Assembly: GCA_027078545.1 (NCBI GenBank)
Contig: JALWXN010000004.1
Span: 960,001-1,024,000 of the forward strand
Source of the DNA: Nitrososphaeria archaeon
GTDB taxonomy: Archaea > Thermoproteota > Nitrososphaeria > Geothermarchaeales > JDFR-13
Direction of reading: 5' to 3'
DNA: 64,000 nucleotides
Position 1 is the stretch's first letter. Each line of letters opens with the position of its first letter. The translations under genes and the position numbers were made by a program. Below the pieces are notes generated by a model, which searched no databases, was not told where the DNA came from, and saw only the letters and a list, made by a program, of their open reading frames with translations. Positions 1,622-7,250 of the stretch are shown here, piece by piece.

Positions 1622-2851
1622 ATGATGGGGAGAGACCCGATAGACGAGATCAGGGGAACCTATGGAGAGGAGCTGGGGGATAGGAGGATCATACTAGTCG
1701 TCACAGGGAGCATCTCCGCCTACAAGGCTCCGGACATAGCTAGGGAGCTGATTAGACATGGTGCCGAGGTCTACATCGTCGCGAGCCAGGACGCCCTGAG
1801 ATTCGCCACTAGGGATACCCTTGCATGGAGCGTGGGTGGTAGATTGATTACCGAGATGTCCTACCTAGCAGAGCATATATACCTGCTTAGGGATGCAGAC
1901 CTAGTCCTCGTGGCTCCTGCAACGGCCAACACGGTGGCTAAGGCGGCATACGGCGTAGCGGATACACCAGCGACACTGGCCATACACTCTGCACTGGGGT
2001 ATGGGAAGAAGGTGTTGATAGCCCCCGTGATGCATCTAAACATGGCTGAGAACCCCCTCTATAAAGAGGCTGTGGAGAGGCTTAGGAAGATGGGAGTAAT
2101 ATTCATAGACCCACTGGTCGAGGAGGAGAAGGCTAAGCTACCACCCCTCAGGGATATCAAGATGGAGGTCTTCAAGTCCCTATACCCGGAGATACTCTCA
2201 GGTAGGAAGGTGGTGGTCACTGCTGGACCCACCATAGAGTATATCGACCCAGTCAGGATAATCACGAATAAGAGTAGTGGCAAGATGGGTGTCTACATAG
2301 CTGAGGAGGCCTACCTAATGGGGGCTGAGGTCACCCTTATACACGGCCCGATAAGGGTCGAGCCATATAGAAAGCTGGAAAGGATACCTGTCGAGACCAC
2401 CGAGGAGATGCTGGATGCAACAATGGAGGCCCTCGAGGGGGCCGACATATTCATAAGCGCAGCTGCACCAGTAGACTATAGGCCGGCCCTCCAGTGGGAG
2501 GAGAAGATAGATACCCGTAGCACAGGTGGACTGGACCTAGAGCTCGTCCTAACACCCAAGATCGTGGCCGAGGCTAAGAAGAGGTATCCCGATCTATACA
2601 TCGTGAGCTTCAAGGCCCTCTACAACGTGGGTGACGAGGAGCTAGTAGCTGCAGCGGCCGAGCATGCCAGGAGATACAGATTCAACCTGACGGTGGCTAA
2701 CGACGTAGCCCGTGAAGGTACAGGGTTCCAGCACGAGACAAACGAGGTCTTCATAGTCGATAGGGATGGCAGGCTGGTGAAGAGGCTTAGGGGGCATAAG
2801 AGGACCTTGGCCAGGGAGCTACTCCAGATCATAGCGGGAGAGCTTGGATAG
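1622..2851 (+). CDS. coaBC: Bifunctional phosphopantothenoylcysteine decarboxylase / phosphopantothenate-cysteine ligase
   Basis: VTGSISAYK, APATANT, VTAGPTIEYIDPVRIITNKSSGKMG. Confidence 0.95.
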   Translation: MMGRDPIDEIRGTYGEELGDRRIILVVTGSISAYKAPDIARELIRHGAEVYIVASQDALRFATRDTLAWSVGGRLITEMSYLAEHIYLLRDADLVLVAPATANTVAKAAYGVADTPATLAIHSALGYGKKVLIAPVMHLNMAENPLYKEAVERLRKMGVIFIDPLVEEEKAKLPPLRDIKMEVFKSLYPEILSGRKVVVTAGPTIEYIDPVRIITNKSSGKMGVYIAEEAYLMGAEVTLIHGPIRVEPYRKLERIPVETTEEMLDATMEALEGADIFISAAAPVDYRPALQWEEKIDTRSTGGLDLELVLTPKIVAEAKKRYPDLYIVSFKALYNVGDEELVAAAAEHARRYRFNLTVANDVAREGTGFQHETNEVFIVDRDGRLVKRLRGHKRTLARELLQIIAGELG

Positions 2852-3568
2852 CCTATCCATTATACGCCTCAACACCGCTGCGAGGACTGCTCCATTATCA
2901 TACCTGGTCAGTATCTCCCGGGCCTCCTCCCTAGTCATCCCCGTCATCTCCCTAGTAAGTATGGGGAAGACCCTCACAAGGTTATCCACAATTGTTATGT
3001 CCGAGTTCCTAGCCGTCCTACTCAGGGGGTTCAGATCGACCGATATAACCCTCTTCCCAAGCCTCCTAAGCCCCTCCGGCATATCCCCATCCTCAATCAT
3101 AAGCATAACAGTGTCAGCGGAGTAGATCCCCATGCTTGAGACGAGGCGCCTCCTACTCGACACTGTGGGTATCTCCACATCATGGTCGGTATATACCGGT
3201 ATAGAGAGCCCCCTGAACAGCCTAGCTATCGCCTCGACCCTCTCCCTAGAGTAGTGGAAGAGGTTTATCTCGATCGGGATCCCGAACCTCTCGGCGAAGC
3301 CCGCTATCTCCTCATGGGCAAGGGCCGCCGCATTACCATTAACGGCTATAACCGGCCTCTTAGAGAGTATGAGTAGGGCTGCTGCAGCCCTATAGGCTGG
3401 TAATGCCTCCTCTGGTGTCTCCTCACCTAGGATATAGTCGAAGCACTCCCCCCTGCCATGGGCGATGAGGCCCTGGGGGACGACGACATCCCCAAGCATA
3501 CTAACCAGTCGTTCACGTATGACCAGGCTCTTGTAGCGTGGGTGGCTAGTGGGGATATCAGTCATCAA
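2819..3568 (-). CDS. pps: Archaeal 4-phosphopantoate--beta-alanine ligase (phosphopantothenate synthetase)
   Basis: IPTSHPRYKSL, GLIAHGRGECFDYILGE, VDLNPLSRTA, TIVDN. Confidence 0.93.
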   Translation of the reverse strand: MMTDIPTSHPRYKSLVIRERLVSMLGDVVVPQGLIAHGRGECFDYILGEETPEEALPAYRAAAALLILSKRPVIAVNGNAAALAHEEIAGFAERFGIPIEINLFHYSRERVEAIARLFRGLSIPVYTDHDVEIPTVSSRRRLVSSMGIYSADTVMLMIEDGDMPEGLRRLGKRVISVDLNPLSRTARNSDITIVDNLVRVFPILTREMTGMTREEAREILTRYDNGAVLAAVLRRIMDRLSKLSRYDLE

Positions 3569-4406
3569 TTATCCTTAATCCACACCTCGATATTTTAAGA
3601 ACCTCTGTATACCCCATACCGGAAAGATTATCAGCCACCTCGGGGCCGAGGCCCTTGTCAACATAGACCAGGACGATATTCTTCTTCCTATGGAAACCTA
3701 TGAGGGAGCCCCTCCTCATATAGATCCTCAGCCTACCCACCAACTCCTCATAGAGATCCCTATCCATAAGCCCCGTCATCAATGAGAATCTCTGACTAGC
3801 CTCAACAAACCTCTCTAGACCCGGGTCCTCGAGGAAGTATCTATGTATCTCAGGGCCCACAGCCGAGACCTTCTCACCAACCCTCCGGAGCATCTCAGGA
3901 GTGGTCTCCGACCCAGTCTCGAGGGCCACTACGTCGGGATCACCGTCCACCCTGACCGACTCTACAACAGCCTCTCCAGGCCCACCTGGGAAACGTCTAA
4001 CCTCGAGCCCACCCCTTATAATGGCTACCACGTCTCCATAGCCAGTCCGGTTTAGAACCTCCGCATTGTGGACAGCCCTACCTGCCTCCTCAACTGTATG
4101 GGCACCAGCTAGTAGGAGGCCAGCCATCGAGAGGCCAGCGCTCATGCCATAGCCAATGCCTAGGAGTGGGCGTGAATAGGCCTCTATCGCGATTGGTTCG
4201 AGACCGAGGTAGGAGAAGCTGTCCAGATATGTCTTGAAGACTACTCTCCCAGAGCCACTGAAGTATACCCCTGGGCCGCCCTTTCCCATCCCGACCCTTA
4301 TAGGGCTCAGATTCACACCTGCGCCTACACTACCAGTCGTCTGGGGATCATGCCCCTCAACGACGTACCAATACCCAGTTACATGTCTAGGAACCTCTAT
4401 GATCAT
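3558..4406 (-). CDS. pok: Pantoate kinase (GHMP family)
   Basis: VPRHVTGYW, TGSVGAG, GIGYGMSAG, AEVLNRTGYGDV; overlaps pps. Confidence 0.88.
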   Translation of the reverse strand: MIIEVPRHVTGYWYVVEGHDPQTTGSVGAGVNLSPIRVGMGKGGPGVYFSGSGRVVFKTYLDSFSYLGLEPIAIEAYSRPLLGIGYGMSAGLSMAGLLLAGAHTVEEAGRAVHNAEVLNRTGYGDVVAIIRGGLEVRRFPGGPGEAVVESVRVDGDPDVVALETGSETTPEMLRRVGEKVSAVGPEIHRYFLEDPGLERFVEASQRFSLMTGLMDRDLYEELVGRLRIYMRRGSLIGFHRKKNIVLVYVDKGLGPEVADNLSGMGYTEVLKISRCGLRIIDD

Positions 4407-4451: not shown

Positions 4452-5615
4452 TTAGTGGGTGGGCGACCTCACTAGTAGGCCGTTCTCCTCGAGCCACCTC
4501 ACCATGCCCTGGTAGGCCAGTATCCTGGATATAGACTTCCCACCCTTCGGCCCAGGCTTCTTCATGTAGAAGGCGTTGACCTCGTATATCGTACCGGTGT
4601 AGCCAGCGTCCAGCGCCAGCCTACCCAGCCTAGCAAGGTCGACCATGTAACCAGCCAGTGCCGGGCTATCATTGATCCTCATGTTAACATAGATACTGTC
4701 CCTAACACCGTTGAAACTCTTATACTCTATGTGTATACTGACGAACTTCTTGTCGCCGAGGGGCTCCAGGTAGCCAGTGGGCTTGATATAGTGTGGCGCG
4801 TCGTAGCCCAGGATATCCTCCACGATACTGCTCTTCGTCTTCTCCTTCATCAGGTTCTTATCCGGATCTGTGAGAGCGTAGAAGTCTAGGTTACCCCCTA
4901 TATTGAACTGTACCACGAACTCAACACGCCTATTCCTCTCACTGAGATGCTCCAGGACATCGGCTGTGAAGGGCGTCGCACCAGTAGCTCCGTCGTCACC
5001 CAGTATCAGTCCACCGGCCTCCCTATACATCTTCACGTAGAGGTCGTCGTTGGCCAGTGGGGTGGGTATCAGGTTTACGAAGGCGACTGGGCTATGCCTC
5101 CTACTATACTCTGCAGCCACGTAGGCGTAGAACTGGCCAGCCGATACCCTCCCCTCAGCCAGCCTCTCCTCCAAGACCTCTATAGACCCGATCTCATCGG
5201 CATACTCGGTAGTTATCACGTTGATGATGACGTCGGGCTCCAGCTCCCTCCACTGGTCGATCAAGGTCTCCGCCGCCTCTAGGAGGCTCATCCTATAGTC
5301 TAGACCCCTGGACCTGATGCCCAGCCTATCCAGGTTCCCAAGGTGGACACCCTCCAGTACCCTGAGACTCCTGAGACTCTCCGGTATAGGCACTACATCG
5401 CCTATCTGCCTCTTAGCCACCTCGTAGAGCGTCTTGCCAACCTTGGACTCGTCGACGTCATAGGCAGCCACTACCTCTACCTCGGATATACTCTTCTCAA
5501 GCTTACCTGCAAGGGGTACTCCATAAGGCTCTATCTCACCAGCCTTAATCCTCTCAAGCCCCACAGCGAAGTGTGAGGCCGCCATACCCATGCCGAGCAG
5601 TATAACCCTCACCAT
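4452..5615 (-). CDS. ino1: myo-inositol-1-phosphate synthase
   Basis: N-terminal Rossmann fold, GDDGATGATP, QFNIGGNLDF, RINDSPALAG. Confidence 0.92.
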   Translation of the reverse strand: MVRVILLGMGMAASHFAVGLERIKAGEIEPYGVPLAGKLEKSISEVEVVAAYDVDESKVGKTLYEVAKRQIGDVVPIPESLRSLRVLEGVHLGNLDRLGIRSRGLDYRMSLLEAAETLIDQWRELEPDVIINVITTEYADEIGSIEVLEERLAEGRVSAGQFYAYVAAEYSRRHSPVAFVNLIPTPLANDDLYVKMYREAGGLILGDDGATGATPFTADVLEHLSERNRRVEFVVQFNIGGNLDFYALTDPDKNLMKEKTKSSIVEDILGYDAPHYIKPTGYLEPLGDKKFVSIHIEYKSFNGVRDSIYVNMRINDSPALAGYMVDLARLGRLALDAGYTGTIYEVNAFYMKKPGPKGGKSISRILAYQGMVRWLEENGLLVRSPTH

Positions 5616-5701
5616 ATCTAATCACCTCCTTAGGGTGTGATGGAGGATTAGTGAATAGGTGTGGAGCTAGTAGCCCCGAGGATCCACAGAGACCTCCATC
5701 C
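5616..5701 (-). promoter_or_regulatory. Structured 5' leader of ino1 (candidate cis-regulatory RNA)
   Basis: TATA-like TTTATAT at 5735-5729; GAUGGAGG/CCUCCAUC helix; CUAAUCCUCC complementary to SD region GGAGGUGAUUAG. Confidence 0.5.
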
Positions 5702-5749
5702 AAAAAATATTGTGATGTATGGTGGAGGATATAAATATGATTGGGAGCG

Positions 5750-7162: not shown

Positions 7163-7250
7163 AAGGAATATACACCCCAGTCCATAGAAGGAGTGTAAAG
7201 CCGCCTCTCAATGGAGTGTCATCCGGCTCCACACTCAAACCTCCGTATGT
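7163..7250 (-). promoter_or_regulatory. Structured 5' leader of the GSA-AM-like gene (candidate cis-regulatory RNA)
   Basis: TATA TTTTATATA at 7281-7273; 13-bp core stem GAGUGUGGAGCCG/CGGCUUUACACUC with G.U pairs that form only on the minus strand. Confidence 0.55.

Follow-up and report, generated by a model that had tools for sequence, protein, structure and literature searches.

Background

To our knowledge, very few cis-acting mRNA elements have been described in archaea and almost none in the hyperthermophilic Thermoproteota, a group in which most mRNAs are leaderless. The leaders of Escherichia coli ompA and of Bacillus subtilis aprE and ermC carry 5'-terminal stem-loops that act as stabilisers, RNA thermometers such as ROSE and fourU mask the Shine-Dalgarno (SD) sequence by means of a short leader hairpin that can pair with it, and ON-type translational riboswitches, such as the adenine riboswitch of Vibrio vulnificus add, are laid out in the order P1 5' strand, domain, P1 3' strand with the anti-SD, SD and AUG.

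Long structured 5' UTRs have been reported in Methanolobus psychrophilus, where RBS-masking stem-loops are predicted and leaders have been linked to transcript stability (PMC5378194). The gene for myo-inositol-1-phosphate synthase, ino1, is strongly induced on heat shock in Pyrococcus furiosus (log2FC 4.0), as part of a response run by Phr, a repressor that binds DNA; for the Crenarchaeota a thermal regulator is not known (PMC10746257). No published account of a leader element of ino1 in archaea was found.

An earlier note on the window, by which is meant the whole stretch of 64,000 nucleotides that was analysed, had proposed that the leader of ino1 acts as a switch controlling the SD, either as a translational riboswitch or as an RNA thermometer. 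The analysis reported here favours a static 5' stem-loop domain that would lock up an anti-SD-like tract and leave the SD free, for the benefit of mRNA stability or efficient translation, a reading to which we assign a probability of about one in two. Like the ompA, aprE and ermC stabilisers, the ino1 leader is predicted to have a stem-loop that begins a few nucleotides at most from its putative 5' end and, after it, a strong SD free of pairing, and the conserved feature is the structure and not the sequence. Unlike them, it belongs to an archaeal host with other decay enzymes, its start is a predicted one and its closing helix is long-range and composed of SD-like and anti-SD-like words. The leaders of Methanolobus psychrophilus provide an archaeal precedent for long leaders, but they belong to a psychrophilic methanogen with alternative start sites, whereas the present case involves a probable thermophile, a single predicted promoter and an SD predicted to be open (PMC5378194).

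Methods

The genome of the window is referred to as G000, that of the sister species as G002 and the ino1 leader of the latter as L002. Folding energies were compared with those of dinucleotide shuffles and with a control set of 282 SD-led ORFs of the genome that are preceded by 110 nt or more of DNA free of ORFs. Fold populations in G000 were obtained from constrained ensembles, and nearest-neighbour energies above 70 C are extrapolated. Covariation was assessed against one close relative and comprises a single compensatory pair.

The ino1 locus and its host

The MAG holding the window comprises 1.24 Mb in 11 contigs, and the GC content of its 16S rRNA (64.5%) suggests that the organism is a thermophile. 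Its closest relative is G002, a hydrothermal-vent MAG deposited as "Candidatus Geothermarchaeota", the Ino1 protein of which is 96% identical. Apart from this sister, the best ino1 relatives in metagenome and genome scans show 71-74% identity; a search with the Ino1 protein identified P0003 and P0004 at 78-79% identity, along with eight more proteins of the 97% cluster. A search of the genome for genes of the di-myo-inositol phosphate (DIP) pathway yielded only two CDP-alcohol transferases, both short.

The leader is located in a spacer of 134 nt, flanked on one side by a gene for a class-III aminotransferase (PF00202; 5750-7162, minus strand) and on the other by ino1 (4452-5615, minus strand, 387 aa; PF01658, E = 5.5e-25). 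The gene downstream of ino1 has its own TATA box ~32 nt ahead of its ATG, and ino1 is therefore taken to be monocistronic. This downstream gene is weakly pantoate-kinase-like, without a Pfam match and with NCBIfam scores far under the cut-off; together with a phosphopantothenate synthetase gene (the two spanning 2819-4406, minus strand) it makes up a pair of archaeal CoA-pathway genes served by a promoter of the leaderless type.

Promoter and predicted transcription start

The TATA-like box reported in the earlier note is present and can be read directly from the DNA as TTTATAT (5735-5729, minus strand). The sister species and every orthologue of the family retain both the box and the A-run ahead of it. 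Across G000 the frequency of TATA-like hexamers is highest 32-39 nt ahead of first start codons, which indicates that most genes of this genome are leaderless or nearly so and that genes with an SD and a long leader, ino1 among them, are a minority.

The first T of the ino1 TATA box lies 34 nt ahead of G5701, and transcription is predicted from the promoter geometry to start at this G (5701 +/- ~3 nt, minus strand). A start near 5701 and a leader of ~86 nt, as previously proposed, are plausible, since they fit the 32-39 nt spacing of the genome and the layout seen in relatives: an A-run, TTTATAT, ~22 nt, an AT-rich stretch or T-run and a G recur ahead of ino1 in other members of the genus. The sequence ATATTTTTT(G) is kept in L002, L003, L036, L035 and L004. 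An AT-rich element at 5702-5712 on the minus strand, with a T6 run at 5707-5702, is putatively promoter-proximal and could double as an oligo-T terminator of the upstream aminotransferase gene. The data support the presence of an own promoter and a long leader for ino1, and it is plausible from the same geometry that the 5' arm of the helix described below is part of the RNA.

Structure of the leader

All the pairings claimed for the leader exist at the coordinates given for them. The 5' arm of helix P1, GAUGGAGG (5700-5693, minus strand), contains a 5'-proximal AUG and an SD-like GGAGG and is fully complementary over 8 bp to the anti-SD-like tract CCUCCAUC (5646-5639, minus strand), which forms the 3' arm. 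P1 encloses an inner hairpin (5688-5660, minus strand) closed by UGUGGA (5688-5683) and UCCACA (5665-5660), the bases of which are also used by an alternative GGGGCU/AGCUCC fold. The SD of ino1, GGAGGUGAU (5629-5621, minus strand), is a perfect 9-nt complement of the 3' end of the 16S rRNA, ...GGAUCACCUCC, which was located in the genome. The alternative helix that masks it is formed by CUAAUCCUCC (5650-5641, minus strand) with GGAGG-UG-AUUAG (5629-5618) and has 10 bp with a 2-nt bulge. CCUCC can pair with either the 5' GGAGG or the SD, and the two folds are mutually exclusive, as the earlier note had stated.

The leader (-105 to -22) has a minimum free energy (MFE) of -27.0 kcal/mol against a shuffle mean of -15.0 kcal/mol (z = -4.29), and none of 400 shuffles was as stable. 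Among the 282 control regions, for which the mean z was -0.21, with 5% below -2 and 1% below -3, it is one of the two most structured. The sole other region of equal structure, lying outside the window (G000:C4:637319-637430; L184 1521-1640, minus strand; z = -4.58), contains two clean hairpins ahead of a gene whose 387-aa product has a PP-loop ATPase domain and a ThiS-like one. A perfect 8-bp helix arises in 1.8% of the shuffles, and the 9-bp helix of the sister species in 0.8%. When the SD and the AUG are included, the 96-nt fold reaches a z of only -1.4; what goes beyond chance is a self-contained 5' domain, consisting of P1 around the inner hairpin.

Pairing of the extreme 5' end is less uniform across the genus. 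In L001, nucleotides +2 to +9, beginning with the start of P1 at +2 of the predicted transcript, are paired with a probability of 0.89 against 0.53 in shuffles, 5% of which were as high; the excess over shuffles is not consistent in the genus and the 5' end is free in L003.

Other possible identities of the structure were considered and set aside. The predicted fold lacks a bulge-helix-bulge processing site, and an H/ACA-like RNA was rejected as the ACA after P1 in G000 is UAU in L002 and no K-turn was seen. The whole spacer has a z of -4.2 owing to complementarity of the TATA region, which holds a third CCUCC tract, to the SD/AUG region; this pairing (5723-5740 with 5611-5629) was discarded, its arm being upstream of the predicted start and not conserved in L002. 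A blastn search of the genome returned no paralogue of the leader. A stretch of 16 identical nucleotides at C4:709078 sits in a coding frame, and the 12-mer CTCCACACCTAT occurs mostly within apparent long ORFs, in which its reverse complement reads I-G-V-E, and was taken as a compositional coincidence.

Conservation in the sister species

Between G000 and G002, 67 of 170 four-fold degenerate sites of ino1 differ (39%) and the three linkers of the leader are ~50% changed. Only 5 changes are found from +1 to +42 of the leader, the P1 5' arm is identical, UCCUCCAUC of the P1 3' arm is unchanged at all 9 positions and the P1 pairs are kept 8/8. In the inner hairpin 6/6 pairs are kept, the outermost U:A having become C:G, a compensatory change. 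The helix arms have changed far less than expected under neutrality, and the RNA structure of the ino1 leader is thus under purifying selection.

The masking helix fares differently, with 3 of its 10 pairs broken in L002. In the comparison with relatives suggested in the earlier note, made with this one close relative, P1 is conserved, the inner hairpin is conserved with a single compensatory pair and the helix that would hide the SD is not conserved. All four GGAGG/CUCC-type segments are nevertheless invariant between the two species, L002 has an alternative masking register (CCUCCAU:AUGGAGG, 7 bp, -8.8 kcal/mol) and in the consensus fold computed by RNAalifold for the two species CCUCC is paired with the SD. 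Already at this distance, ~50% of the junction strand of the inner domain has diverged.

Leaders of the family orthologues

All the family orthologues of Ino1 (57-74% identity) have a promoter with a long leader behind it, and their SD is strong. The z of the leader is below -2 in 11 of 17 orthologues, representing ~6-7 of 10 lineages, against 5% of the controls. The sequences of the stems are unrelated between genera and the lengths of the loops are variable; the leaders of other genera have no common sequence, and an aptamer-like core conserved across genera was not found. Distant groups (Desulfurococcaceae-like, Thermococcus-like and high-GC) have short ino1 leaders or none, and the structured leader is therefore a lineage trait.

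Two readings without a functional RNA structure bear on these data. A chance or compositional by-product devoid of function would agree with the weak z of the 96-nt fold that includes the SD, with the frequency of GGAGG and CCUCC words in the genome and with the 16-nt match and the repeated 12-mer, which were read as coincidences of coding sequence. It is scarcely credible in view of a rank among the top two of 282 controls, of the 400 shuffles that all fell short, of helix arms that changed far less than neutral expectation and of the recurrence of structured leaders in most lineages of the family.

The second reading places the function in the DNA. A conserved block extends from ~-17 to +46, beginning upstream of the predicted start, and its inverted repeat might serve as the operator of a transcription factor at or after the start. 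Archaeal repressors commonly bind at or just past the TATA box and the start site, and the palindromic sites of Phr are an example of such binding near the TATA box and start (PMC10746257). In the genus g2 (L007, L009 and L010), moreover, a 12-bp stem, GGGUUAUAUAGG / CCUAUAUAACCC, is near-identical in sequence in the three species, with one U:A replaced by U:G. The loop of this same stem, however, varies from 14 to 23 nt, so that the spacing of the arms is not fixed, and the stems differ in every genus; a conserved block of ~60 nt exceeds the typical length of an operator, and the symmetric double change in the inner hairpin preserves a pair. In 11 of 17 orthologues the fold of the sense strand is more stable than that of the antisense strand; the difference averages -1.9 kcal/mol and is -6.6 kcal/mol in G000. 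Unrelated stems, variable loops and the folding bias towards the sense strand together make an RNA hairpin more likely than a dimeric operator in the DNA. No regulator gene was found next to the ino1 locus, the small ORF upstream being ThiS/MoaD-like. The control by Phr in Pyrococcus furiosus concerns the same gene, but that repressor acts on DNA palindromes in Euryarchaeota and none is encoded beside ino1 here (PMC10746257). An operator is thus considered very unlikely.

Besides the g2 stem, a word UAUAUAGG occurs in the leaders of g5 and CCUAUAUA in g7, and this could represent a sequence-specific recognition element within the family.

Accessibility of the Shine-Dalgarno sequence

The proposal that the leader controls the SD depends on the balance between the two folds, and in G000 the SD-open fold outweighs the SD-masked one at each modelled temperature. 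In the constrained ensembles the SD-open P1 fold accounts for 77% at 37 C, 45% at 70 C and 16% at 80 C, and the CCUCC:SD fold for 0.3%, 2.5% and 5%, respectively. The masking hairpin has an energy of -8.0 kcal/mol at 37 C and ~-0.3 kcal/mol at 80 C, against -25.2 and -2.6 kcal/mol for the P1 domain (the 80 C values being extrapolated); at 80 C and above P1 is worth only -2.6 to -6.1 kcal/mol, on extrapolated nearest-neighbour energies.

The core of the SD is unpaired in the MFE fold from 37 to 75 C. At 37 C the SD is unpaired with a probability of 0.60, which compares with 0.18 for shuffles and lies at the 98th percentile, and at 70 C with a probability of 0.56, against 0.25. The native SD is more accessible than that of 95-98% of the shuffled leaders, and its modelled accessibility is nearly flat from 37 to 70 C, energies above 70 C being extrapolated. 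At 70 C, seven of eight orthologues of g1 and g7 are at or above the 87th percentile and the eighth is at the 83rd. The property under selection looks like an exposed SD, which according to these models would be achieved by a pyrimidine-rich leader folding on itself.

The complementarity that could mask the SD is not above chance. The leader:SD duplex energy gives p = 0.70 in G000 and p = 0.65 in the sister species, the corresponding energies of the 17 orthologues are distributed like those of shuffles and, with the SD forced to pair, local masking is at least as good in 39% of the shuffles. The local masking energy of the sister species is borderline unusual, with 7% of shuffles as good.

These results bear on the bistable translational switch, in which CCUCC(AUC) would toggle between the 5' decoy GAUGGAGG and the SD, with temperature, a metabolite or a protein setting the balance. 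Both pairings are present and exclude each other, and the order of the elements is the established layout of an ON-type translational riboswitch. In L002 the ensembles with the SD open and with the SD masked differ little in energy (-32.4 vs -33.1 kcal/mol at 37 C) and the masking helix is retained in its other register; the two-species consensus and the invariant GGAGG/CUCC words point the same way, as does the heat induction of ino1 in P. furiosus alongside the lack of a known thermal regulator in Crenarchaeota (PMC10746257). Set against this are a masked state of 0.3-5% at all modelled temperatures in G000, masking no better than in shuffles, an SD more open than in nearly all of them and similarly open in g1 and g7, the loss of 3 of 10 masking pairs in L002 and a masking hairpin that at 80 C contributes almost nothing. 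The claim of an SD-controlling switch is not upheld by these results and, on present evidence, such a switch is unlikely in G000. A more specific form of it, in which ino1, in a thermophilic lineage of Thermoproteota with no known heat-shock transcription factor, would be under post-transcriptional control by an SD decoy, the 5' GGAGG at the start of a mini-ORF (see below) competing with the SD for one CCUCC and temperature, a ribosome on the mini-ORF, a protein or a metabolite shifting the balance, is decidedly unlikely.

As regards the two classes that had been suggested, ino1 shares with SD-masking thermometers a short leader hairpin that can pair with the SD and, in other hyperthermophiles, a place in a heat-related pathway (PMC10746257). 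A thermometer of this kind is contradicted by the prediction that the SD is unpaired at low temperature, being open already at 37 C and more exposed than in shuffles; the signature motifs of ROSE and fourU are also absent. A search of Rfam 15 with E up to 10 returned no relevant match, the two chance-level ones lying inside coding sequence. The order of the parts is that of the add riboswitch, but the ino1 leader has no conserved ligand-binding core, its masking helix is not conserved and its P1 is ~17 kcal/mol more stable than the masking hairpin in G000. The riboswitch reading thus found neither a core common to other genera nor a match in Rfam and, with a junction strand that drifts between sisters, a ligand-binding riboswitch is unlikely.

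Small open reading frames in the adjacent leaders

The leader of the aminotransferase gene, also on the minus strand, contains an SD, GGAGGU (7244-7239), followed by a GUG (7232-7230) that opens an ORF of 25 codons, the TGA of which (7157-7155) shares bases with the ATG of the aminotransferase gene (ATGTATGA). G002, G003 and G001 retain this SD and start together with a frame that stays open as far as the same stop, and their peptides begin ME.(D/E)D; in G010 the arrangement is not clearly kept. This ORF is, judging from its sequence, a candidate for a leader peptide or for translational coupling. The folding z of the aminotransferase leader is -2.2.

A motif UGUGGA(K)CC (5683-5690 and 7223-7232) occurs in both adjacent leaders in G000 as well as in G002. 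A regulatory RNA family common to the two leaders was rejected, as the motif is absent from the ino1 leaders of G003 and G001 and in the aminotransferase leader is explained as the SD plus the GUG-GAG(-CC) start of the small ORF; the 6-mer hairpin pattern of the motif has 73 matches genome-wide.

The ino1 leader itself may, more speculatively, contain a leaderless mini-ORF of 10 codons from the AUG in the P1 5' arm (5699-5697) to a UAG (5669-5667; 5667-5699, minus strand). Ribosomes translating it would unzip P1 and the inner hairpin and free CCUCCAUC to mask the SD or otherwise remodel the leader. Counted from the first T of the TATA box, the AUG comes 36 nt downstream, where leaderless genes of G000 begin (32-39 nt, the start being predicted). 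L002 has retained the frame together with its start and stop, and the adjoining aminotransferase leader likewise has a conserved small upstream ORF. The peptide, however, is not conserved: 2 of its 10 residues are radically changed in L002 against 3.6% in Ino1, and third codon positions are as conserved as the others, so that the constraint acts on nucleotides and not on the peptide. The AUG is moreover buried in P1, and the mini-ORF is confined to the two sister species, with no equivalent in L003, L036, L004 or L035 and with non-homologous ORFs in g7 and g4. Coupling through this mini-ORF is accordingly highly improbable.

Proposed role of the leader

The leader of ino1 is exceptionally structured and under purifying selection, structured leaders recur in the orthologues and the SD is predicted to be open. 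In the static-domain reading, the ino1 mRNA would be transcribed from its own TATA promoter with a start at ~5701, and its first ~62 nt would fold into a domain in which the 8-bp GC-rich P1 (5700-5693 with 5646-5639) surrounds the inner hairpin. This domain would lock the strongest anti-SD-like tract of the leader, CCUCCAUC, in P1, and for that reason the perfect 9-nt SD would stay single-stranded. The 5' stem-loop would protect or stabilise the transcript and insulate the SD, possibly also offering a site for protein binding, and ino1 would be translated constitutively from a structured, probably long-lived mRNA. Stabilisation and insulation are the most likely functions to be ascribed to the 5' domain, and the alternative pairing with the SD is best explained as a by-product of a P1 built from GGAGG and CCUCC.

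Conclusion

Control by an SD decoy, if true, would constitute a new archaeal class of translational switch, at a gene for the precursor of a stress solute and lipids. In a leader rich in CCUCC and GGAGG, however, an eye-catching pairing between anti-SD and SD is no better than chance, and the feature under selection appears to be the opposite of masking, namely an SD that is kept free. A single gene has a long, exceptionally structured and selected leader across a whole uncultured family, and the ino1 leader thus offers a concrete target for understanding how such archaea tune mRNA stability and translation at high temperature.
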